This document shows positions 2,595 through 40,985 of a stretch of DNA of 64,000 bases, in pieces. Each line of letters begins with the position of its first letter. Within the stretch, counting starts at the first letter, position 1. The notes beneath the pieces are model-generated. The model was not told where the DNA came from. It made no database searches and saw nothing but the letters and a program-made list of their open reading frames with translations. The stretch comes from Candidatus Kaiserbacteria bacterium (lineage in GTDB: Bacteria; Patescibacteriota; Minisyncoccia; Phycocordibacterales; UBA918), in NCBI GenBank assembly GCA_016699245.1, contig CP064968.1, forward strand, positions 704,317-768,316, read 5' to 3'. Position numbers and translations under genes: made by a program.

Positions 2595-3953
2595 TTAAAA
2601 ATCTATTTCGATAGTCTCGTGCTCTGCCGGAGCAACCGCATTTACATCTAAATAGTCGCGGAGACGTTGCACCAAGAAAAGAGAGGCACGTTCTTCTCCC
2701 ATAGTTACAAAGACCTGCTTAACCTTTTCTCCTCCTTGTTCCACAAAATGAACGAGTTGGTCTCGGTCTGCATGTCCTGAATATCCACGAATGCGCGCAA
2801 TCTTAGCACGTACTTTAACGTCTGTATCGAGTATACGTACCTTTTTTGCGCCATCATTTAGTAATCGTCCAATACTACCCACCGCCTGATACCCCACAAG
2901 GAGTAATGTGGTCTTTGGGTCTTCGAGATAATTGCGCTCGTGCTCCTGTATACGTCCTCCATGACTCATTCCCGAACCTGCGATAATAATCTTCGCTCCA
3001 TGTTCCTGTCCAATCTTTGCAGAATCTTTCATTGAGTGCGTAAAGGAAAGTTTTGGAAAATTAAAGATATCGTCCCCTTCCCTAATCTGTGTCTGCACAT
3101 CTTCCTTGAGATAGCTGGTGTACCCACGGTAAATCTCGGTCACCGAGATAGCGAGTGGCGAATCCAGGAATACGGGGATTGGCTGAAGTCCCTCGTTTTC
3201 AAAGAGATTATTGATCTCAAAGAGCATTCCTTGGGTACGCTCGAGAGAAAAGGCGGGGATAATAAGCGTGCCCCCTTTATGAATCGTGTCCTCAATATAC
3301 ATACGGAGGAGGTCGGTACGTTCCTTCACCTCCTCATGTGAACGATCACCATAGACACTTTCCATAAGAAGGTAATCGTAGTCAGGAACAATTTCAGGTG
3401 GGTTTAAAAGTGGCTGTGGAATATTACCAATATCACCCGTGCAGAGGAATTTCTTTCCATTGCGTTCTAAAGTAATCATGGCAGAACCGAGAATATGTCC
3501 TGCGTCAGTAAAGGTAACACTCACCTCGTCCGGTATAGAAAATGTATCGTGGTACGTGTGGGTTTTCCAAAGTGAAAGTGCATGCTCAATATCCTGCCTT
3601 TCAAACACACGTGGAGTGCCAAATTTTTCTTCTTCAAAAAGCATCACTTTGTATGCATCCTGAAGCATTACCGCTGCTAAATCACGTGTGGGTGGTGTGG
3701 AATAAATAACACCACTGAAACCATCCTTAACAAGCTTCGGGATACGACCAATGTGGTCGGCATGTGCGTGAGTAACGAGGAGAACATTCACGGTATTGGG
3801 ATCATACGCAAAGGGGTCTGCATTTTTCGCAGAAGCAAATCTATCACCCTGCACCAATCCACAATCTACTAAAAAGCGGGCATTCCCTGTATCAAAAAGA
3901 AAATTTGCTCCCGTTACACTGCCTGTGCCCCCGTGAAAACTTAGTTTTGTCAT
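2595..3953 (-). CDS. MBL-fold beta-CASP family ribonuclease (RNase J/CPSF-like)
   Basis: 452 aa. HAHADH zinc motif, beta-CASP layout, C-terminal SGHADRDQL motif. Confidence 0.8.
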   Translation of the reverse strand: MTKLSFHGGTGSVTGANFLFDTGNARFLVDCGLVQGDRFASAKNADPFAYDPNTVNVLLVTHAHADHIGRIPKLVKDGFSGVIYSTPPTRDLAAVMLQDAYKVMLFEEEKFGTPRVFERQDIEHALSLWKTHTYHDTFSIPDEVSVTFTDAGHILGSAMITLERNGKKFLCTGDIGNIPQPLLNPPEIVPDYDYLLMESVYGDRSHEEVKERTDLLRMYIEDTIHKGGTLIIPAFSLERTQGMLFEINNLFENEGLQPIPVFLDSPLAISVTEIYRGYTSYLKEDVQTQIREGDDIFNFPKLSFTHSMKDSAKIGQEHGAKIIIAGSGMSHGGRIQEHERNYLEDPKTTLLLVGYQAVGSIGRLLNDGAKKVRILDTDVKVRAKIARIRGYSGHADRDQLVHFVEQGGEKVKQVFVTMGEERASLFLVQRLRDYLDVNAVAPAEHETIEIDF

Positions 3954-4378
3954 GTATCTAATTGTTTAATGTTCTTCACCATACCATACCCCACTGCCCC
4001 TCCGAGTAAATCCATACACATATCAAGTATCGTGTCTGGAATAATATTTGTTTCAAATTGATACATTCCAGTGCTGTATTCAAATAATTCCCAACATATA
4101 CCCATACCGAGCACGAGGAACATATAAAGCGAAAATGAACTTCTCTTTTCAATATACTGCAAACGAAAAAATGGTAAAATCGCAATACCAAACGCACACA
4201 CAAGTCCACCAAGAAAATGCATCGGTATATCAAGCCACAGATACTTCCAATACAAGAAAAACGAAGTTGCCAGAGTATGCGTGAGTGCAAGTGTCGTTGC
4301 TGCTAAAAAGAAAAGTGTGAGAAGTAATCCCATATGATATATCGTACCATACCTGGGATAGGTACTAAAAAAACGCAC
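3950..4378 (-). CDS. Hypothetical polytopic membrane protein
   Basis: ORF begins with GTG at 4378 inside a hairpin. A more likely start is ATG at 4333 (MGLLLTLFFLAATT...). Overlaps the upstream gene stop by 4 nt. Confidence 0.5.
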   Translation of the reverse strand: MRFFSTYPRYGTIYHMGLLLTLFFLAATTLALTHTLATSFFLYWKYLWLDIPMHFLGGLVCAFGIAILPFFRLQYIEKRSSFSLYMFLVLGMGICWELFEYSTGMYQFETNIIPDTILDMCMDLLGGAVGYGMVKNIKQLDT

Positions 4379-6262: not shown

Positions 6263-6859
6263 CTATGCGAGTGAAAGCGCTTGTAATATTTGTGTATGGA
6301 CACCAAGAATTGTATCTGACCCATCGCAGTCGATGACCGAAGTATTTGACCGTGTACGGTAGTAGTCGAGCACGGGGAGTGTTTCTTCCCGATACCAGGT
6401 AAGACGCGCTTCTATGGAGGCACTCGTATCATCCTTCCGTGCACGCTTTATCATACGTTCACGCACCACCGCTTCTTCGGTTACTAAATCAATCACAATT
6501 ACGTGGTTGCGACGGTAAAAAGCGAGTGCACTTTCGAGTACTTCAGCTTCATGAATGGTACGTGGAAATCCATCAATGAGGAGATGAGCTTCGGGGTCGA
6601 GATGCTGATGAAAAGCATCACTCCAAAGCATTACCGAAAGAAACAGTGGCTGTAGCATCCCTGTATCAAGGGTTTCGTGCACCTTTTTTTCCGTAAACCC
6701 CTCCCCTTTCATCGCTAGTGCACGAAACCTACGCCCTGTTTGCACATCAATGACGCGACGTGTGGGATCATGCATCTTCAAAAACTTCGAAAGCATTTCA
6801 ATCTGGGTTCCTTTTCCGCTTCCCTGTGGTCCAACGAATATAATAGTATATGTTTGCAT
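6263..6859 (-). CDS. adk: Adenylate kinase (short, no zinc lid)
   Basis: IIFVGPQGSGKGTQ P-loop and an AK-family fold. Confidence 0.9.
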   Translation of the reverse strand: MQTYTIIFVGPQGSGKGTQIEMLSKFLKMHDPTRRVIDVQTGRRFRALAMKGEGFTEKKVHETLDTGMLQPLFLSVMLWSDAFHQHLDPEAHLLIDGFPRTIHEAEVLESALAFYRRNHVIVIDLVTEEAVVRERMIKRARKDDTSASIEARLTWYREETLPVLDYYRTRSNTSVIDCDGSDTILGVHTQILQALSLA

Positions 6860-6978
6860 TCAAAGTCCCAATTATTGGTATAACGCCCTGTACCTATAGA
6901 GTCTACCCAAGACTACGAAAAACACAACCCGTTATATGAGAATTCTGTAACCCATCAAAGTGTGGTATCGTACCAGAC

Positions 6979-7548
6979 ATGAAGAAACACATCATTACTC
7001 TCGGAGGACTTCCCGGTAGTGGAAAATCCACGGTAAAACGCCTTTTAGCTGAGAAACTTGGATATGCCACCTTTTCGACAGGAGATTTTGTTCGTGAAAT
7101 GGCGCATGAGCGCAATCTCACTCTTGAAGAATTTAATGAACTCGTGAAGCGCGACAAAACGCTCGATCTACTGATCGATGAGCGTTTAAAGCGTATTGAG
7201 GCAGAAGAAGATTTTTATGTCATCGACTCACATCTCGCGTTTCACTTTGTACCGAGTGCATTCTCCGTATTTCTTTCAATATCTCCCGAATTGTCAGCAC
7301 AGCGTATTTTTAATGACGCCTCCTCTCCACTTCGCATAAAAAGTGGTGACACTATGGCATCACATGCGGAAGCATACACGCGCACACAAATGCGTATTCA
7401 GAATCACATTGAGCGTTATGCGAAACACTATGGCATCAATCCGTACAACGAGTCGCAGTATTGTTTAATCATTGATACTGAGGCACGCACACCAGAGGTT
7501 GTCGCAGATATTGTGCACACTGAATATCAGTCATGGCTCACTGGATAA
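6979..7548 (+). CDS. Cytidylate kinase-like P-loop NMP kinase (paralog 1)
   Basis: ITLGGLPGSGKST P-loop, ...IDSHLAFHFVP...FLSISPELSAQRIF resembles the Cmk lid region. Confidence 0.65.
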   Translation: MKKHIITLGGLPGSGKSTVKRLLAEKLGYATFSTGDFVREMAHERNLTLEEFNELVKRDKTLDLLIDERLKRIEAEEDFYVIDSHLAFHFVPSAFSVFLSISPELSAQRIFNDASSPLRIKSGDTMASHAEAYTRTQMRIQNHIERYAKHYGINPYNESQYCLIIDTEARTPEVVADIVHTEYQSWLTG

Positions 7549-7665
7549 ATTCATGAAATGTGAGCTCTGCTCACCAACACGTGCACTGCACGTGTATTTC
7601 ACTGGATAAATCCGGTGAAATGTGAGTTTCACTCACTGACACGTGCACTGCACGTGTATTTCACT
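7549..7665. repeat. Two tandem copies of a ~55-nt structured element (outer stem GGTGAAAT/ATTTCAC plus two internal hairpins), separated by ATAAAT(CC) spacers
   Basis: Copy 1 7549-7603 and copy 2 7611-7665. Each has hairpins GTGAG..CTCAC and ACACGTGCA-C-TGCACGTGT. A third related copy lies at 21390..21442. Confidence 0.8.
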
Positions 7666-7711
7666 GGATAAATATTTTTGAAGTGCAAAACGTATAGTGT
7701 ACACTTGCTGT

Positions 7712-18327: not shown

Positions 18328-18635
18328 AACTCAAAAAGCGCGTGAACGCATAATAAGGTTGCTCTTACCAATAAAATGGCCTAATATAGCCACTTTGGTG
18401 AGAACCTCGTGTAACAACAGGTAACGGCCAGTGCTAAACGAAGTACCCACAAATGTGTATGTTGCATCACCCACCAGGGTGCATACACATGGGAGTTCTG
18501 AACGAGGGCTATAGTACGCGAAAGCCTGTTGAATGTCAAATGTATGTACGTATTATGAACGACATCGTAAGTCGCTCATAATCTCTCAAAACTAATGCGC
18601 TGTTTATAATAGTTGTTTAGTATAGATTTATGAAC

Positions 18636-18670
18636 ACAAAACCCCGCGCCGGAGGTGCGGGGTTTTGTTG
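18636..18670 (-). terminator. Intrinsic terminator immediately after rplB
   Basis: aaaaccccgcgccggaggtgcggggtttt. About 300 nt of noncoding sequence follow before rpsS. Confidence 0.65.
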
Positions 18671-18685
18671 ATTTCTCTGAAAATA

Positions 18686-19931: not shown

Positions 19932-20657
19932 TTACGAGTTTGTGGCTGTAGCCTTACGTGCCGTCTTGGTTGCAACGCGGGCTTCAAGAGCCTTAAGTGC
20001 TTCCTCAGGTTTTGCGACTACAACATACTTATAGGTGAGTAATTCTACTGGGTTGACGTCTTTGATGTTCATCACCTCGACGTTCCCGAAGTTACGGAAA
20101 CTGAGTTCAGCCTGCGTATCACGTGCGGTAAGTACCACAAGTGCTGCGTTCGCCTTCTTTGTTCCAATATCCTTCATGTGTGCAACAGTGCCAAGCGCCG
20201 TGAGGAACTTGCGTGCCTCTCCAGTCTTTGGCTCTGCAAAAGTAAGTGCATCAACGAAGACAAGTCCCCCTTGTGCATGCTTTTGTGAAAGTACGCAGGC
20301 GAGTGCCTTTGCGCGTGCATTCTTGTTGATTTTGCGTGTGAAGTCACGCTCGTTGCGTGGTCCGTGTGCTACACCTCCACCAGTCCAGATTGGAGAACGT
20401 GAAGATCCATGTCGTGCGCGGCCAGTACCCTTTTGCTTCCACGGCTTTCTACCTCCTCCACGCACTTCAGCGCGGTTTTTGGTATGCGCAGTATTTGAAC
20501 GGGCATTACCTTGCATCGAGACCACGACTTCGTGTACGAGGTCAGCATTCCATGCGACACCAAACACCTTTTCAGGGAGTGCAATATGTGAGACCTCTTT
20601 TCCTTCTTGCGAATATACATTCGCTTCTAGTTTTGTAGTACTCATATGCTTATACAC
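19932..20657 (-). CDS. rplD: 50S ribosomal protein L4 with C-terminal extension
   Basis: L4 family. Start possibly at the second Met (MSTTKLE). Confidence 0.9.
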   Translation of the reverse strand: MYKHMSTTKLEANVYSQEGKEVSHIALPEKVFGVAWNADLVHEVVVSMQGNARSNTAHTKNRAEVRGGGRKPWKQKGTGRARHGSSRSPIWTGGGVAHGPRNERDFTRKINKNARAKALACVLSQKHAQGGLVFVDALTFAEPKTGEARKFLTALGTVAHMKDIGTKKANAALVVLTARDTQAELSFRNFGNVEVMNIKDVNPVELLTYKYVVVAKPEEALKALEARVATKTARKATATNS

Positions 20658-21270
20658 TACGTACTTCTACTAACGTGCCTCGTCGACCTGGAATAGCACC
20701 CTTGATAAGGATGATATTCTCTTCCTTATTGACTGCCATAACTTTTAAATTCTTTACCGTAATACGGTCACTTCCCATACGGCCCGCCATACGAACGCCC
20801 TTGAAGACGCGCTGTGGACCTGTTGAACCGATTGAGCCCGGTGCACGAAGGATATCCTTCGTACCGTGACTTGCTGCTCCTCCACGGAAACCGTGGCGCT
20901 TTACCACTCCTTGGAACCCTTTTCCTTTTGAAATGGCTGACACGACAACAACATCACCTTCTTTGAAGATTGATGCATCAAGCATCGCATCCTTTGCAAA
21001 ACCTTCTACAGATTCTGCATAGCCGATACGTGGACGGAACTCCACCACGTGCTGGTATGCGCCACCCATATGCCCGGTTTGTGCTTTGTTGACGCGATGC
21101 GCCTTCTGAGCACCCGAAGCAATCTGTATGGCTTCATATCCATCCTTCTCCTTGCCTTTCACCTGAGTCACCTTTGCAGGTGTCACACGGAGAATGGTTA
21201 CCGGATGCGCGATTCCCTGTGCATCAAACACCTGGGTCATCTGCTCCTTGGTTCCCAAAATAAATTTCAT
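20650..21270 (-). CDS. rplC: 50S ribosomal protein L3
   Basis: L3 family. Confidence 0.95.
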   Translation of the reverse strand: MKFILGTKEQMTQVFDAQGIAHPVTILRVTPAKVTQVKGKEKDGYEAIQIASGAQKAHRVNKAQTGHMGGAYQHVVEFRPRIGYAESVEGFAKDAMLDASIFKEGDVVVVSAISKGKGFQGVVKRHGFRGGAASHGTKDILRAPGSIGSTGPQRVFKGVRMAGRMGSDRITVKNLKVMAVNKEENIILIKGAIPGRRGTLVEVRSV

Positions 21271-21389
21271 TTATTTTAAAAACTAACTGATAAATGCTTT
21301 TTGACCGAGGTAATTGAAAAACCGCGATTTCCTAGTCGCAAGCACAAGCTCGCAGACTAAAAAATCGCGGTTTTGCGCCCATTGGTCTC

Positions 21390-21442
21390 CCGGTGAAATA
21401 CGAGCTTTGCTCGTCACACGGCTTTGCCGTGTATTTCACTGG
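21390..21442. repeat. Third copy of the ~55-nt structured element (GGTGAAAT ... GTATTTCACTGG flanks, two internal hairpins)
   Basis: ccggtgaaatacgagctttgctcgtcacacggctttgccgtgtatttcactgg. The flanks are shared with 7611..7665. The internal stems differ in sequence but still pair. Confidence 0.75.
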
Positions 21443-21561
21443 GGTACGTAGGTCTTAAAAAGCTAGGAGGAGTATACAGGAATACTCGAAAGATGCAATG
21501 ATGCAGTCCCCCAAGTTCAATAATTAATTGCAACACCTGATTAGGACATCAGATGTCCTAA

Positions 21562-21903
21562 TTATCGGAAAAGAAGAATTTTAATATTTTCACTTACTTC
21601 CTCAATAACTTCCGTAGAAACTTTTTGTATGAAACGAACTTTTCGACTTTTCCAATCCAAATTGCGCATTTGGTCGGAAAGCACTACACCGTCAACTTTC
21701 TCTTCGCTGAGCGGAACTTCATACGAATACCCCTTTATGCGTGAAGTTATGGCACAAGCAACCATAAGATTTGTCCTTTCATTATATTTTATTGGAGAAA
21801 GAACGAGCACTGGTCTAAGATTCGCCTGTTCGTGTCCTCTCGTGGGACTCAAGTCAATCCACACAACATCACCTTTGTCGGGGACATATTTCTCTTTTAC
21901 CAT
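21562..21903 (-). CDS. mazF: Type II toxin MazF/PemK family endoribonuclease
   Basis: YVPDKGDVVWIDLSPTRGHEQANLRPVLVLSP...KGYSYEV...VVLSDQMRNLDW closely parallels E. coli MazF. Confidence 0.9.
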   Translation of the reverse strand: MVKEKYVPDKGDVVWIDLSPTRGHEQANLRPVLVLSPIKYNERTNLMVACAITSRIKGYSYEVPLSEEKVDGVVLSDQMRNLDWKSRKVRFIQKVSTEVIEEVSENIKILLFR

Positions 21904-22139
21904 ATTTCGTTACCCACTGGCTTACCCCAATCCACCTCTTCGTGAAGATTTTCTTTTGTTATACCTTTAAGCATATCGTCAAGAGTACGACGCTCCCTCT
22001 TCACAACTTCAATGGAAATCCCTGTTTTTGTTTCTGTTACCAAAACACGACTCCCTGCTTTTAAAGATTTGCTCATAGCAATACTCTTTGGCAGACGAAC
22101 TCCGAGACTATTCCCCCATTTTTGAATATTAGTTTCCAT
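21897..22139 (-). CDS. mazE: Type II antitoxin MazE (AbrB/SpoVT fold)
   Basis: ATG at 22139 gives METNIQKWGNSLGVRLP...ITKENLHEEVDWGKPVGNEIW, parallel to the E. coli MazE C-terminus. Overlaps mazF by 7 nt. Confidence 0.9.
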   Translation of the reverse strand: METNIQKWGNSLGVRLPKSIAMSKSLKAGSRVLVTETKTGISIEVVKRERRTLDDMLKGITKENLHEEVDWGKPVGNEIW

Positions 22140-22145
22140 ATGTTG

Positions 22146-22170
22146 AAAGTATATACTATGTATATACTTT
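22146..22170. promoter_or_regulatory. Perfect palindrome AAAGTATATAC-TAT-GTATATACTTT 7 nt upstream of the mazE start: putative MazE/MazF operator
   Basis: 11-bp arms seen directly. E. coli mazEF is autoregulated through a promoter palindrome. Confidence 0.5.
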
Positions 22171-22276
22171 TGCAATACTCGTTGTTCCCCAACGCCACGA
22201 GGCGCACTGCAACAAGATCGTGAAGGTGAATCTATTACGTACCCCAGACACGTGACTTTCTTTGCCTAACAAATAC

Positions 22277-22307
22277 AAAACCCCGCGGCCAAGGGCCGCG
22301 GGGTTTT
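22277..22307 (-). terminator. Intrinsic terminator after rpsJ
   Basis: aaaaccccgcggccaagggccgcggggtttt. Confidence 0.7.
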
Positions 22308-22336
22308 GTAACAAACTGGTGACAACAATAACACTC

Positions 22337-22702
22337 CTACATCATCTTCACATCAATGCTCACGCCTGATGGAAGAGAGAGGTTGGTGAGCGCTTCGATT
22401 ACCTTAGCGCCCGGATTCATAATATCGATGACACGCTTGTGCATTCGCATCTCAAACTGTTCTCGCGCATCCTTATGAACGAATGTCGAGCGGTTTACCG
22501 TATACTTCTTGATTTCAGTAGGCAATGGAATTGGACCGATTACCTTTGCGTCGAAACGCAATGCGGTGTCAATAATTTGCTTTACCGATGTATCGAGAAT
22601 CTTATGCTCGTACGCACGAACACGAATCCGTAGCTTTTGGATTTCTCCGCCAGCAGTTGCTTTTTTCACCTTTTTGGGTTCAGCAGTTGTTTTTGTTGTC
22701 AT
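22337..22702 (-). CDS. rpsJ: 30S ribosomal protein S10 with Lys-rich N-terminal extension
   Basis: ...QKLRIRVRAYEHKILDTSVKQIIDTA... S10. Confidence 0.9.
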   Translation of the reverse strand: MTTKTTAEPKKVKKATAGGEIQKLRIRVRAYEHKILDTSVKQIIDTALRFDAKVIGPIPLPTEIKKYTVNRSTFVHKDAREQFEMRMHKRVIDIMNPGAKVIEALTNLSLPSGVSIDVKMM

Positions 22703-23921: not shown

Positions 23922-24325
23922 AGTATTAGTAACTAACTATTAGATAATAATTCCGCACGTGCGACTCCCTTCGTATAAAACGAATGAAGACTTGCAAGTA
24001 CTCAGAGGAAAGGGCGCGAGAACGCCACCTTACCTCTAGGTGCACACAAGTTGCATGTCAAAAAGAGCAAAAACTCCCTCAACCCATAACCCCAAAGGGT
24101 ATAGGCGCGGTGTCGCAATAGTACAAGAATGAATCTATTTTTGCAAGCGGAAGTCTGACCTCACCATGTTCGACACGTCAAGACTCTTTTGTTCGCGAGA
24201 AAGAGGAATAATAATCTCAACTGAACACTCCTGCGTAGTATATTGACATAGAATACCCTGCATTGTATCGTGTGCCCGTTCCCCAGATAGATAGGGGTGT
24301 TCTTTCAACAACGAGGAGAATTGAA

Positions 24326-24826
24326 ATGAAGAGCCTAAAGTCCACATGCCTTTCGGGTCCATTTTATGGTACCTACAATGGGAAATTGGATTATCCCCTA
24401 TCCGTAGAGGTAAATCTTTGTGATCCCAGTTCGACGGTTGCGTTCCTCAAGAAACGTATGCAGGATAGCCAATTTGTTCATCTCACCCTAAGGACACCGC
24501 AATACGAGTCGCGGCAAGACTTGTTTCTAAACGGTTATTTCCTTGCTGATTTGATATTGTTCGCAGAGGTTAACATGGCGCGAATTAGTGCACACTTTCT
24601 CCCGGCATTAGAAATCAAAGATTTGGGGTGGATAATTACGACGCAGGATAATGACAGTGGTACGTGTCCCGGACTGATTGATTTAGTCATCGGTCACAAA
24701 GAGATTATGGAAAAATACCTTCGTACAGGGAATGACTCACTCATTTCCCCCCGCGTCTTGGAGATTTACTCAGATGCAGCAGTTCGAAGATCTTTGAGGT
24801 CTAAATATTATGATGGGGAGGATTAG
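24326..24826 (+). CDS. Hypothetical protein
   Basis: ORF 24263..24826. Internal ATG at 24326 has a GGAG SD 8 nt upstream. Weak candidate promoter TTGACA-17-TATCGT at 24243-24271. Confidence 0.45.
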   Translation: MKSLKSTCLSGPFYGTYNGKLDYPLSVEVNLCDPSSTVAFLKKRMQDSQFVHLTLRTPQYESRQDLFLNGYFLADLILFAEVNMARISAHFLPALEIKDLGWIITTQDNDSGTCPGLIDLVIGHKEIMEKYLRTGNDSLISPRVLEIYSDAAVRRSLRSKYYDGED

Positions 24827-24908
24827 CCTTCGTGGCTCTATCCGGCAACAATGTTGCCGGATATTTTATATTGGTCTAAAACAGAAATCTATCTGCTATA
24901 CTGCGCGC

Positions 24909-25480
24909 ATGCAACAACTTCTAGAAATAGCCCGAAATGCGGCCCACGAGGCAAGTGAGGCAGTAATCGCCATGCGCGAGGGGGTCACTCATGAAATAAA
25001 AGGGGATGGCTCTCCCGTGACCGCGGCTGATACGCGCGCGCACGACATCATCATGGAACATCTTACTCCCACGGATATTATGATTCTTTCTGAGGAATCT
25101 AACGGTGTTCCTATGCCCTATCCTGAATATCTCTGGGTCATCGACCCTATCGATGGCACCAAGGATTATATGAAAGGAAGCACTGACTTCTGCGTTATGA
25201 TTGCGCTTCTTCAGAATGGCAAACCACTACTCGGCGTTGTGGATGCACCCGCACTCAATACTGTTTTCTCGGTGACTTTTATTTCACCCAAGGAGGGCTT
25301 GGTGAATGGGATGTCTGCGCACCTGAAATTATCTTTCGTGAAGCAGGAGGTGTCGTGAGCGACTGTCTTGGAAACGACATTGCATACGGTAATCCAGAAC
25401 ACCGAATTCCTCATGGCGTACTCTTTGCGCAAAAAAATTGTTATGACGAGGTGCTCAGTGCAGTGAAAATGACAGCATAG
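24909..25480 (+). pseudogene. Inositol monophosphatase/CysQ-family gene with ~75-codon internal deletion and frameshift
   Basis: N-terminal part (frame 1, to ~25268) matches SuhB through ...LWVIDPIDGT...VVDAPALNTVF. The C-terminal part ...DFYFTQGGLGEWDVCAPEIIFREAGGVVSD... is in another frame (to the TAG at 25478-25480). The middle of the fold is missing. Confidence 0.55.
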
Positions 25481-25572
25481 TATGCAACAAAAACATGCAT
25501 ACTCCTAAAAATATGCTATTGTACCTACAGAGAAAGCCCTAGATTCCTAGTGCTACGGACAAGGAGTTTGAC

Positions 25573-26043
25573 ATGAGTACACAACAAAACGTGCCCGCTC
25601 TCAATCGGTCACTATGGTCTCTGTGTGGATTATTGTTTTTTGGCAGTGTAACGTATCATCTGTTTTTGAAATACATTGGCCCAGGGCTGAATGAAATCAT
25701 AACCATCGACCCTAAAACAGTCACCCTATCCCACCTCGGATTGATATTTGCACCTATCATCGGATATCTTTTGATAACGGGGAATATCTGTTTAGCAATC
25801 AATGTCGTCAAGCCACTCAAGGTGTGGGACGACATGGGTCTCGTCTGGCACCTCACCATGGGCTTTGCAATGGGTCTCGGTGCATGCCTTATCTGTGGTC
25901 TTGTATTTGGCGTCCTTGGGGGTGCTGTCGAAGAACTTGTCTATGGTCTTGTTGGGGGTCTGCTCGGGAGTTCCCTTGCAGGCCTCGGTTTAGGTCTTGT
26001 TGGAAGTCTTTTCGGGGGTATCTTCAAGGAACTGACACCATAA
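25573..26043 (+). CDS. Hypothetical membrane protein with Gly-rich C-terminal TM segment
   Basis: 156 aa, several hydrophobic helices, GxxxG-rich tail. Confidence 0.5.
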   Translation: MSTQQNVPALNRSLWSLCGLLFFGSVTYHLFLKYIGPGLNEIITIDPKTVTLSHLGLIFAPIIGYLLITGNICLAINVVKPLKVWDDMGLVWHLTMGFAMGLGACLICGLVFGVLGGAVEELVYGLVGGLLGSSLAGLGLGLVGSLFGGIFKELTP

Positions 26044-26218
26044 TCGCCTCATAGATGCAAGGAAAATCTCCTTGCATACGTGAGGCGATTTTCTATTTAA
26101 AAATATCAAGTTGAAATGTTTAAAAATCTACCAGTTTAAATATTTACACATACCACTTCTTATAGTATTGTCTCACTGTTCCCGTTATTTGAAACGGGTG
26201 TTTTTTGAGGAGTAGACC

Positions 26219-26695
26219 ATGTCAGCAGACAAAGTTAAGGTTGTATCATCCCCTGTCATTCCTATCGGTGGGATGCGGGGGCGAGGGATTGTGGTTACCA
26301 TGACGAGATCTCGTTCAAATCGTTTTGCACTCATCAAAGAGGAGTTTGGAAACGGAGACCATATAGCACTAGCCACGGAAGGTGGCGTCAAATGGGCAGA
26401 CCACCCAGATGTGTGCGGGGTTGATCTTCTCCTTCAATTCATGAATATGAAGCGCGCGAATCCTGGATTCATGAATGGAGCATTCTGGAAAATCTTCCCT
26501 GAATATGACAACATCCCACTTTCAGAATTTGGCCTCCAACCCTGCTCGAACGATGCAATTTCTGGAACACGCGACGACATTCATGCCCACATTGTCTTAG
26601 CGCGCAAAGAGGTCTGGGATAGCGGAGCAATTCCTCGCTTCGTTGACCCGATTGACCCAGTACCTTTAGCAGAACGAAAACCGCGGGAAAAATAA
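26219..26695 (+). CDS. Hypothetical protein
   Basis: 158-aa ORF followed by a bidirectional terminator. Confidence 0.45.
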   Translation: MSADKVKVVSSPVIPIGGMRGRGIVVTMTRSRSNRFALIKEEFGNGDHIALATEGGVKWADHPDVCGVDLLLQFMNMKRANPGFMNGAFWKIFPEYDNIPLSEFGLQPCSNDAISGTRDDIHAHIVLARKEVWDSGAIPRFVDPIDPVPLAERKPREK

Positions 26696-26713
26696 TTATT
26701 TTCCGTAATACCC

Positions 26714-26742
26714 AAAAAGGTGCGCACCCGCGCACCTTTTTT
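26714..26742. terminator. Bidirectional intrinsic terminator
   Basis: aaaaaggtgcgcacccgcgcacctttttt. Confidence 0.7.
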
Positions 26743-26763
26743 ATATCTTTTCAAACACACACA

Positions 26764-27024
26764 TCACTGCACCAACGTGAATCGTGTATGCCTCTCTCCC
26801 GAGCCTACCGGCCACTCCATAGTATCGTTCCACTCACGCACCGGCCGAGTAAAAAGATCGGCATCAGGATTTTCATACAACGGCTTATAAACCACCATCC
26901 ACTCATCATCATTTGAGTGGAGAGCTCTCTCTACGACCTCGTATGAATCACCTTTGTAGTGTCGATATACCTCTCCGATTTTTGGTGCATTTTCGGGAAT
27001 ATTTCCTTTCATAGTGTCGTACAT
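26764..27024 (-). CDS. DUF1653-family small protein
   Basis: VYRHYKGDSYEVVERALHSNDDEWMVVYKPLY motif (G.VY.HYKG...Y.V). Confidence 0.7.
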   Translation of the reverse strand: MYDTMKGNIPENAPKIGEVYRHYKGDSYEVVERALHSNDDEWMVVYKPLYENPDADLFTRPVREWNDTMEWPVGSGERHTRFTLVQ

Positions 27025-39371: not shown

Positions 39372-40985
39372 TCACCGAAACGGAAAAGAAGACTTGGAAT
39401 CCCCTGAAGCGCTTTGCGCTTCTCGGGATTTTTCTTTTTTAGTTTTTAATTTCTCTTTTCCTTCAACCTCTTCTTCAATTATCCATCCTGCGTAGGGGTT
39501 CTCTTCTTCGTTCTGTTTCTCACGAGTGAAATACACATACCCCACTCCCACGAGCACGTATGAAACGAGTACAATCCAAAATGGAAACGCATTCACTGAG
39601 AATGAGGCAAACGGGAGATTTCCGAAAAATTCTGCAATGCGCACAATGTACATAAGCGAAAGGTATGCAAAGAAGCCAAAAAGGGTACCGAGTGGAACAG
39701 AGACAAGCCCGAGGACACCCGTGAGAAATGTGAGTCCCATGGCGGGAGGCACCATGGGGAGCACAAGCACATTTACGACGAGTGCCACTACGGAAAAAAG
39801 TCCCATGTGGTACAAAATGAGTGGGAGAACAGCAATTTGTGTCGCGATGGTCGCGGTCACAAACATGCGGATGCCATACTTTTCTGGTACATACGTGAGT
39901 CGTTTTTCTATGTGTGGCGAAAAAAGGATAAGCCCCAACGTTGCGAGAAACGAGAGTTGGAACCCAGGATCGTGCACGAGGAGGTACGGATTCCACACAA
40001 GCATACCGACAAGTGCGAGCATGAGTGCGCGAATGACTGCATACAGTCGCCCAGTCCCCCGTGCCACAATGAGAAGAATCGCCATAAAAGATGCGCGCAG
40101 AACAGTGGATGAAAATCCGACAAGGAGTGCGAAAGTAATGACAAGCCCTATACCAAGAAACATGCGCGTTCGTGGAAAGAAAAGAAATGCGAGGACGTAC
40201 GTGATAATCTCGACCACAATCATGATGTTGTACCCCGAGAGTACAACAATATGAATGATGCCGGTCTCACGAAACGTTCGCTCAAGATCTTCTCCGAGCG
40301 CACGCTTCACGCCGAGAAGCACTCCCTCTCCCAATCCAGCAGCTGGCTCGGGCACCGCACGCTCGAGAGCATCCATGAATGCACTCTTTCCATGGTAGAG
40401 ACCCCTGAGAAATGAGTTTGTTTCACTTTTCTCAATATGTACCTTCGCATAGGGGAGTGTGTAGAAGACATTTTTTGCACGAAGGTACCCAGGGTAGTCA
40501 AAAGTACGCCCACCATCTGCCTCAAATGCTTCTGGTTTTTTAAGAACACCCTCAGCGTGTACGACATCTCCATACGAAACTCCCTCTTTTGCAAACAGAA
40601 ATCTGTCTGCAGTTACCAAGACGAGTTCATTACTTTCTTCAGTATCTGGCTTTACGTAGAGATGAATAGTCTTCGCCCGATACTCTGGTTCACGTGCGAT
40701 AACTCCATGAATTACCACATTCGTTTCCTCCTGTGCACGAAGGGGAGATTCGTACGTTTCTGCATATCCTAGACGAAACAGACCAAGCGAAGTAGAAATA
40801 AATATGAGCGCACAGAAAAAAAGTGGCGCATCAAATTGAGAAGTCTTAATACGCCACGCAACCAAGCACGCGACCCCGATAAGAAGAACGAGTGCAGCGC
40901 CCTCATAGCCAATATCAAAAAACGAGCGGATAAAAATTCCGCTCGTGAATGCTATACCAATTGTATAAAAAATTGTATTTTGCAT
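39372..40985 (-). CDS. comEC: ComEC/Rec2 DNA-uptake channel (N-terminal DUF4131 plus competence membrane domain, no MBL domain)
   Basis: 537 aa, polytopic. ...IIHIVVLSGYNIMIV...VLRASFMAILLIVA... competence-domain pattern. Confidence 0.75.
   Translation of the reverse strand: MQNTIFYTIGIAFTSGIFIRSFFDIGYEGAALVLLIGVACLVAWRIKTSQFDAPLFFCALIFISTSLGLFRLGYAETYESPLRAQEETNVVIHGVIAREPEYRAKTIHLYVKPDTEESNELVLVTADRFLFAKEGVSYGDVVHAEGVLKKPEAFEADGGRTFDYPGYLRAKNVFYTLPYAKVHIEKSETNSFLRGLYHGKSAFMDALERAVPEPAAGLGEGVLLGVKRALGEDLERTFRETGIIHIVVLSGYNIMIVVEIITYVLAFLFFPRTRMFLGIGLVITFALLVGFSSTVLRASFMAILLIVARGTGRLYAVIRALMLALVGMLVWNPYLLVHDPGFQLSFLATLGLILFSPHIEKRLTYVPEKYGIRMFVTATIATQIAVLPLILYHMGLFSVVALVVNVLVLPMVPPAMGLTFLTGVLGLVSVPLGTLFGFFAYLSLMYIVRIAEFFGNLPFASFSVNAFPFWIVLVSYVLVGVGYVYFTREKQNEEENPYAGWIIEEEVEGKEKLKTKKEKSREAQSASGDSKSSFPFR

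Follow-up and report, generated by a model that had tools for sequence, protein, structure and literature searches.

A mazEF toxin-antitoxin module in the spacer between rpsJ and rplC of a Candidatus Kaiserbacteria genome

Introduction

How does a toxin-antitoxin (TA) module come to stand among the genes of ribosomal proteins, and does it take part in their expression? The question is raised by a 64-kb stretch of a Candidatus Kaiserbacteria genome (contig CP064968.1; hereafter the window, whose coordinates are used throughout), in which mazE and mazF lie between rpsJ and rplC. The first-pass annotation of this DNA regarded mazEF as inserted inside the S10 operon and specially placed for read-through into rplC. 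The comparison with related genomes presented here points elsewhere. Quite probably the locus holds an intact, autonomous, self-repressed type II MazEF module in a cargo slot between two transcription units, which entered the slot once and has been inherited vertically under purifying selection. The module is an ordinary, already annotated one in an unusual but explainable place, and no new regulatory design is involved. Loci of relatives are designated below by L-numbers and MazF homologue proteins by P-numbers.

The mazEF pair

On the minus strand the open reading frame (ORF) list and Pfam matches give the order tuf (23921-22728), rpsJ, mazE, mazF, rplC, rplD, rplW, rplB, rpsS, rplV and rpsC (Table 1). 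MazE matches the Pfam family MazE_antitoxin with an E-value of 8e-8 (32.5 bits, cut-off 24.7) and aligns over its full length with E. coli MazE (1ub4_C, E 6e-13, 35% identity). Its tail ENLHEEVDWGKPVGNEIW is aligned with the C-terminal toxin-binding tail of the E. coli protein (DWG...W). The start codon is the ATG at 22139, in agreement with an independent gene call. The TTG at 22175, which opens the longest ORF, was rejected as a start, these bases being part of the -35 box. MazF covers positions 2-109 of the 109 positions of the PemK_toxin profile (E 1.9e-26, 92.8 bits, cut-off 23.1), matches MazF chains of solved structure with E-values from 6e-28 to 1e-25 and shares 40% identity with E. 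coli MazF across 107 residues. The best solved-structure match, on sequence only, is the MazEF of PDB entries 7d28/7d2n (MazF E 5.7e-28, antitoxin E 5.7e-12). In the alignment to 3nfc_A and 5ck9_A, Arg30 and Thr53 correspond to Arg29 and Thr52 of E. coli MazF, which we take to be its catalytic residues, and both are invariant columns in an alignment of 11 MazF sequences. The two genes overlap by 7 nt (21897-21903) with the antitoxin gene first.

Table 1. Features of the rpsJ-rplC region and genomic contexts of the closest MazF homologues.
Feature	Coordinates	Strand	Support or context
rpsJ (ribosomal protein S10), final gene of the predicted tuf-rpsJ unit	22337..22702	-	Pfam Ribosomal_S10, E 1.5e-31
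Predicted intrinsic terminator of rpsJ	22274..22310	-	perfect 17-bp stem, 3-nt loop, T-rich tail TTTTGTATTT; -33.5 kcal/mol, z = -7.6
Predicted mazEF promoter	22148..22175	-	TTGCAA (22175-22170), 16-nt spacer, TATACT (22153-22148); consensus scan
Putative operator palindrome	22146..22170	.	AAAGTATATAC-ATA-GTATATACTTT; two self-complementary GTATATAC boxes 11 bp apart
mazE, antitoxin, 80 amino acids (aa)	21897..22139	-	AbrB-type N-terminal domain and MazF-binding C-terminal tail; Pfam PF04014
mazF, endoribonuclease toxin, 113 aa	21562..21903	-	Pfam PF02452, PDB MazF chains
Palindrome at the mazF stop codon	21540..21562	.	ATTAGGACATC-T-GATGTCCTAAT, perfect arms, without T-run
Predicted dedicated rplC promoter	21471..21498	-	TTGCAT (21498-21493), 16-nt spacer ending in TG, TATACT (21476-21471); conserved columns
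Structured rplC leader, ~195 nt	21271..21464	-	fold -110 kcal/mol, z = -8.2
Y-shaped (three-way junction) repeat at variable P2 of the leader	21389..21443	-	fold z = -6.8
rplC (L3), opening gene of the predicted rplC-rplD-rplW-rplB unit	20650..21270	-	Pfam Ribosomal_L3, ORF list
Predicted terminator after rplB	18636..18668	-	z = -6.5; second break in the cluster
P0002 (L083-L086)			87% MazF identity; rpsJ, six cargo ORFs including HicA, mazEF, 305-aa ORF, rplC
P0011 (L087)			78% MazF identity; tuf, rpsJ, mazEF, two small ORFs, rplC
P0012 (L090)			71% MazF identity; mazEF, 168-aa ORF, rplC
P0008 (L092, L093)			72% MazF identity; Pirin, mazEF, 493-aa ORF, isochorismatase, rplC
P0004 (L094)	136-1111 of L094		79% MazF identity; mazEF directly before rpmE (L31)-prfA-rpsB, same strand
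P0003 (L089)			77% MazF identity; unrelated genes
P0015 (L088)			69% MazF identity; unrelated genes

The pair thus combines a predicted PemK/MazF toxin, an AbrB/MazE antitoxin with its tail, the antitoxin-first overlap and equivalents of the catalytic residues, and its identification as a canonical mazEF between rpsJ and rplC stands, coordinates included. To call the alignment with the E. coli proteins close is justified, provided that clear homology is meant rather than near identity. NCBI already lists a protein identical to this MazF, on a 1,054,716-bp contig, under the name endoribonuclease MazF (Candidatus Kaiserbacteria bacterium).

E. coli MazE/MazF (ChpAI/ChpAK; PDB 1ub4, 3nfc, 5ck9) belong to the same two Pfam families and share the gene order with overlap, the R29/T52 equivalents, the MazE tail (ENLHE..DWG.P...E.W) and a palindromic putative operator overlapping the promoter. 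An A/T-rich "alternating palindrome" with TATATAC-like half-sites is likewise part of the E. coli mazEF promoter. The window module differs in its host, an uncultured member of Kaiserbacteria within the candidate phyla radiation (CPR), in a putative operator made of two perfect GTATATAC boxes and in a probably leaderless mRNA. It differs also in its site between rpsJ and rplC, the E. coli module lying downstream of relA.

Gene remnants are frequent in small CPR genomes, and a decaying or inactive TA remnant devoid of current function had to be considered. Such a remnant is hardly credible here. In none of the nine close loci is either ORF truncated (80 aa for MazE, 113-115 aa for MazF), the equivalents of the catalytic residues are present, and the predicted promoter and putative operator do not vary. 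In comparison with relatives, the proportion of nonsynonymous differences (pN) is 0.05-0.19 for the two genes while synonymous sites (pS 0.5-0.8) are near saturation; the separate ranges of pN and pS are 0.05-0.16 and 0.52-0.77 for mazE, and 0.07-0.19 and 0.50-0.81 for mazF.

Promoter and putative operator

The -10 box of the predicted mazEF promoter ends 8 nt before the mazE ATG, and the spacing to the ATG is conserved across the mazEF loci. The mRNA is probably leaderless or nearly so, starting at or just before the mazE AUG. The promoter spacer and the -10 box are covered by the upstream palindrome, whose 11-nt arms are 100% complementary and separated by 3 nt, and which ends 6 nt before the ATG. 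The arrangement GTATATAC-N3-GTATATAC and its distance to the ATG are invariant in 7 of the 7 close mazEF loci with complete upstream DNA. L088, L089 and L094 keep the two boxes despite their unrelated neighbourhoods, and in L090, where the contig begins inside the site, the visible part matches. The same arrangement is found in 12 of 80 distant metagenomic mazEF loci, at MazE identities down to 44%. When the window is compared with L083-L086, DNA similarity starts exactly at 22175, i.e. at the -35 box, and stops at the mazF stop codon; the module can therefore be delimited as roughly 22175-21562. The palindrome, which had been called operator-like already in the first-pass annotation, is the module's own putative MazE operator, strongly backed by these comparative data.

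By its conservation and by analogy with E. coli MazEF, MazE or the MazE-MazF complex would bind the two GTATATAC boxes, one helical turn apart, and so shut off transcription from the module's own TTGCAA-16-TATACT promoter. Translation of mazF would be coupled to that of mazE via the 7-nt overlap. Upon degradation of MazE, free MazF would be expected, as in the family generally, to cut RNA and arrest growth.

The second palindrome, at the mazF stop codon, is real as well. It begins on the final base of the stop codon and consists of 11-nt arms with a 1-nt spacer. Its sequence is not conserved in L085, L087 and L088; L085 carries an unrelated perfect palindrome at the equivalent place downstream of mazF. 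As RNA it folds with only -12.8 kcal/mol (z = -3.0). Probably it forms a weak hairpin at the 3' end of the mazEF transcript, an assignment made with low confidence. The window has about 18 sites with a perfect palindrome whose arms reach 11 nt or more, versus none in 30 first-order Markov simulations. The palindromes are thus not due to chance, yet they are not unique to the mazEF locus.

Separation of rpsJ and rplC

The terminator proposed earlier for rpsJ is confirmed by its perfect stem and T-rich tail, and equivalent terminators follow rpsJ in L003, L007, L010, L034, L036 and L050. On the other side of mazEF, rplC is preceded by a predicted promoter of its own. In the form TTGCA(T/A)-16-TATACT, its TTGC and TATACT are invariant columns in the window, L003, L004, L005, L006, L007 and L010, and the promoter is present also in L085 and L087. 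The pattern TTGCW-N17-TATACT occurs twice in the window, before rplC and mazEF only, versus 0.05 occurrences expected. The rplC promoter together with the structured leader downstream of it is common to relatives with and without mazEF. From the rpsJ terminators, the rplC promoter and the structured leader together, rpsJ and rplC are predicted to form two transcription units.

The distance between the two genes agrees with such a separation. The rpsJ-rplC gap is below ~120 nt in most of the bacteria fetched and in many Patescibacteria. Large gaps are found in the closest relatives of the window (1071 nt in L003, 1031 nt in L007, 1466 nt in L010, 3556 nt in L006, 1405 nt in L034, 862 nt in L063 and 689 nt in L041). 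No rpsJ was found within 4 kb upstream of rplC in L005, L023 and L032, nor in the shorter upstream flanks of L004, L033 and L044. L036 represents an empty slot, with terminator, promoter and leader within 222 nt.

The S10 cluster is thus predicted to be no longer one operon in the Paceibacteria/Kaiserbacteria lineage, with rpsJ and rplC in separate units. An S10-operon gene would be co-transcribed with its neighbours, with no terminator or promoter in between, and mazEF is predicted not to be such a gene. The tuf-rpsJ transcript would stop at the strong terminator upstream of the module, and rplC-rplD-rplW-rplB would be expressed downstream of it from their own promoter through an attenuator-like leader. 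The break-up of the operon would have created the spacer which mazEF occupies. The claims of insertion inside the operon and of special read-through into rplC do not hold against the rpsJ terminator, the conserved rplC promoter and leader, and the ORFs that intervene in relatives.

Relatives and history of the module

The nearest species representatives are metagenome-assembled genomes (MAGs) of Kaiserbacteria/Paceibacteria, with identities of up to 90% for S10, up to 87% for Tuf and 63-64% for L3. The S10 of the window is 88-90% identical to those of L003 and L087. The closest relative in the scan of species-representative genomes has 64% L3 identity, and closer relatives were reached only via exact-protein look-ups. 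The contexts in Table 1 come from such look-ups of the closest MazF homologues.

Examination of rpsJ-rplC synteny shows mazEF upstream of rplC in five lineages (window, L085, L087, L090 and L092), and other cargo or an empty slot elsewhere. In four of the five (L085, L087, L090 and L092) mazF and rplC have further ORFs between them, 63 to 493 aa in length, so that direct adjacency of mazF and rplC is not the conserved trait. The window, L085 and L087 group together in a neighbour-joining tree built from L3+L4+L23+L2, and the sister of their clade is L003, which is devoid of mazEF; L090 and L092 are not part of this tree, and their L3 is 80-82% identical to that of the window. Identities of MazE and MazF (70-90%) track those of the ribosomal proteins (66-87%). 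Relative to L085 they are 90% for MazE and 87% for MazF, with 82-87% for L3, L4 and L2; relative to L087 they are 85% and about 77%, with 66-75% for the same ribosomal proteins. This parallel, together with pN far below pS, speaks for a single acquisition, vertical descent and continued function. The slot would have received mazEF a single time, in the ancestor of a sub-clade of Kaiserbacteria, with vertical inheritance ever since. As far as sequence can show, mazEF is ancestral at this locus and separately transcribed in the five lineages, the three placed in the tree forming one clade. This is the arrangement that the first-pass annotation had named as contrary to its own proposal.

The metagenome scan returned only distant MazF homologues (at most 61% identity), whose 80 loci serve as a background set. 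S10-cluster genes near MazF were found in none of the 80, and the ribosomal link is therefore lineage-specific.

TA modules are generally mobile, and the GC content of mazEF (39.5-39.8%) lies below that of the window (44.9%) and of the neighbouring ribosomal genes (45-51%). Both facts would suit a recent horizontal insertion of a mobile TA cassette at the rpsJ-rplC junction, and an assembly chimera would give the same picture. Either event is most improbable. The same arrangement exists in four other lineages at L3 identities of 66-82%, and MazEF identity tracks the host ribosomal proteins. Only short, chance-level pairs of direct repeats flank mazEF, and no ORF in the examined part of the region has a Pfam transposase or integrase match. 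The tRNA scan of the 64-kb window found no tRNA genes, which excludes a tRNA-linked integration site. As for the assembly, the Logan contig L001, from another sample (SRR11674051), is 100% identical to the window over 22375-21346 and so extends from the 3' end of rpsJ across its terminator and mazEF into the rplC leader; another contig, L002, covers 21370-20254 with the leader and rplC. The NCBI contig of 1,054,716 bp also argues against a chimera. A chimeric join at the mazEF locus, named earlier as a possible objection, is very unlikely and was not borne out.

Accessory genes in the spacer

The rpsJ-rplC spacer holds varied accessory genes in this lineage and, by its gene content, is a cargo slot of a permissive kind. 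In L010 it contains, on the opposite strand, a ParE-type toxin gene beside a 103-aa ORF with no Pfam match (3311-3894, minus). An ORF of 210 aa that matches nothing in Pfam is present in L003, another ORF, of 263 aa, in L007, and a gene for a sigma-70 region-4-like protein in L034. In L083-L086 a Big_7/PG_binding protein, HicA with its partner (3533-4089) and others stand alongside mazEF. Upstream of rplC in L005 (956-3765), from a Nomurabacteria MAG, a 268-aa putative target protein, a bAvd-like protein and a reverse transcriptase are encoded, and this combination indicates a diversity-generating retroelement. The ParE-type gene and HicA resemble the window mazEF in being small accessory toxin genes between the rpsJ terminator and the rplC promoter. 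They differ from it in belonging to other toxin families, in the opposite strand of the L010 module and in that no persistence across lineages was seen.

The junction between rplB and rpsS is a second variable slot, in which relatives carry 0.5-1.6 kb of cargo: an IS200-like Y1 transposase in L040, DUF5674 in L007 and a glycosyltransferase in L087. In L032 (Candidatus Kaiserbacteria RIFCSPHIGHO2_01_FULL_53_29) a 42%-identical mazEF lies at this junction on the same strand (6756-7385), with its own TTGACA-16-TACAAT promoter (11/12 match) 6 nt before the ATG. Apparently mazEF has here come to lie in the S10 cluster for a second time, independently.

The rplC leader RNA

In the window the closing helix of the rplC leader pairs 21451-21464 with 21296-21306. 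The conserved GACCAATGG (21379-21387) is followed by GCGCAAA and by P3, a long attenuator-like hairpin (21317-21374) ending in a T-run. Leader motifs are present upstream of rplC in 13 species-level lineages (window, L003-L007, L010, L023, L032, L044, L085, L087, L090, L092). Seven lineages share a long form with the closing helix AGCUUU..GACC / GGUC..AAAGC, a variable hairpin P2, the invariant GACCAAUGG, then GCACAAA, and a P3 hairpin of ~20-27 bp with a U-run. P3 is formed by each of the seven, and its apical helix shows compensatory GC/AU swaps, as seen in a small sample and a hand-made P3 alignment. In short-form leaders GACCAAUGG is complementary to CCAUUG within the terminator hairpin, as it would be in an antiterminator/terminator switch. 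The P2 position tolerates insertions of 50-130 nt. With its conserved structure and covariation, the rplC 5' region is predicted to contain a ribosomal-protein leader, i.e. a conserved structured RNA of the 5' untranslated region.

Rfam gave no match at gathering thresholds anywhere in the 64-kb window or in the loci of 13 relatives, and a search of 21150-22450 at E-values up to 10 returned chance-level matches only. The E. coli S10 leader, which mediates attenuation by L4, is likewise a long structured 5' leader before the genes of L3-L4-L23-L2 with a hairpin and T-run near the first gene. The window leader differs from it in preceding rplC rather than rpsJ, in having no sequence or Rfam similarity to it, and in its variable, insertion-tolerant hairpin.

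RNAalifold was run on a MAFFT alignment of the 3' half of the leader. The arms of the long hairpin were misaligned and its basal arms out of register, and the result was not relied on. The program reported a pairing of GGGCACAA with UUGUGCUC instead of the long hairpin (alignment columns 8-15 and 41-48, window ~21373-21380 with ~21340-21347). All seven long-form leaders allow the conserved GGGCACAA to base-pair with UUGUGCUC in the loop and the 3' half of the apical helix of P3; this pairing may represent an alternative fold or a pseudoknot.

Possible links to ribosome synthesis

Several points weigh against a purely autonomous module. The promoters, terminators and transcription start sites on which it relies are sequence predictions. 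The hairpin after mazF has no T-run, and a share of the mazEF transcripts may continue into the rplC leader. In every case mazEF has the strand of the ribosomal genes downstream of it. Related MazEF pairs stand beside translation genes in L032 and, before rpmE-prfA-rpsB, in L094, apparently independently, and these placements are not predicted by a purely neutral "safe harbour" view.

The last three points would suit a mazEF wired into ribosomal-protein expression, either by read-through into rplC-rplD-rplW-rplB or by MazF acting on the rplC leader or rRNA, which would couple the state of the TA module to ribosome synthesis. Such wiring would also account for the persistence of the arrangement across five lineages, and the absence of S10-cluster genes from the 80 distant loci means that the association is no general family trait. 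Nevertheless we regard it as unlikely. The rplC gene retains its dedicated promoter and leader in genomes without mazEF, ORFs separate it from mazF in four of the five lineages, the slot holds unrelated cargo too, and the long P3 hairpin with its T-run would still stand in the way of any read-through. Moreover, the five rplC-linked cases most likely represent one event. The link between mazEF and ribosomal genes then comes down to some three independent events (the rplC clade, L032 and L094); these are suggestive, and too few for statistics or for a claim.

The long-kept place beside the rplC operon and the independent placements in L032 and L094 also raise the idea that mazEF has been domesticated as a regulator of ribosome synthesis in the ~1-Mb Kaiserbacteria sub-clade, with read-through or MazF cleavage feeding the rplC leader. 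We hold this to be improbable. Much more probable is the reading of the rplC leader as a candidate new ribosomal-protein leader RNA or attenuator in Paceibacteria, absent from Rfam. The occurrence of ACA in the leader motif GCACAAA shows no consistent pattern with respect to the presence of mazEF: the window and L087 have GCGCAAA, L085 has GCACAAA. The literature search turned up no publication on mazEF within clusters of ribosomal-protein genes, nor on ribosomal leaders of Patescibacteria. The reading preferred here remains that of a self-repressed module in a slot between units.

Other features of the cluster

The Y-shaped repeat inside the leader is ~58 nt long, and further minus-strand copies lie at 7612-7667 and 7554-7605, in tandem (7554-7667) between two cytidylate-kinase-like genes. 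The copies share a conserved outer stem, CCAGUGAAAU / AUUUCACCGG, and vary by compensatory changes in the two inner hairpins. An element of this kind occupies the same position of the leader in L085. The repeat may be similar to repetitive extragenic palindromic (REP) elements or miniature inverted-repeat transposable elements (MITEs), or may be a protein-binding module. A fourth copy suggested at 39523 was rejected on inspection.

The 358-nt gap between rplB and rpsS (18328-18685) contains, in addition to the terminator listed in Table 1, a predicted TTGACA-17-TACTAT promoter (18539-18511) and a ~180-nt structured leader (z = -4.2).

Within 23922-27024 of the window, ~2.8 kb of mostly opposite-strand ORFs, one of the inositol monophosphatase family and three without a Pfam match, lie between tuf and a DUF1653 gene. 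The DUF1653 gene of L087 lies directly 3' of fusA, and the str cluster of the window therefore also appears to be interrupted.

Conclusions

The mazEF module itself adds little, being a textbook pair already annotated at NCBI; its context is more useful. The str-S10 cluster, which is normally compact, appears to be cut in Paceibacteria/Kaiserbacteria at fusA-tuf, rpsJ-rplC and rplB-rpsS, with predicted terminator and promoter pairs at each cut, and the gaps carry TA modules, a diversity-generating retroelement and an IS200-like transposase. Operon inference from gene order alone should accordingly be made with caution in CPR genomes. The most novel by-product of the analysis is the candidate rplC leader, next to the putative MazE operator and the Y-shaped repeat within the leader. 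Two cis elements are thereby offered for experiment: the deeply conserved putative MazE operator GTATATAC-N3-GTATATAC, and an undescribed structured rplC leader which may act as an autoregulatory attenuator.

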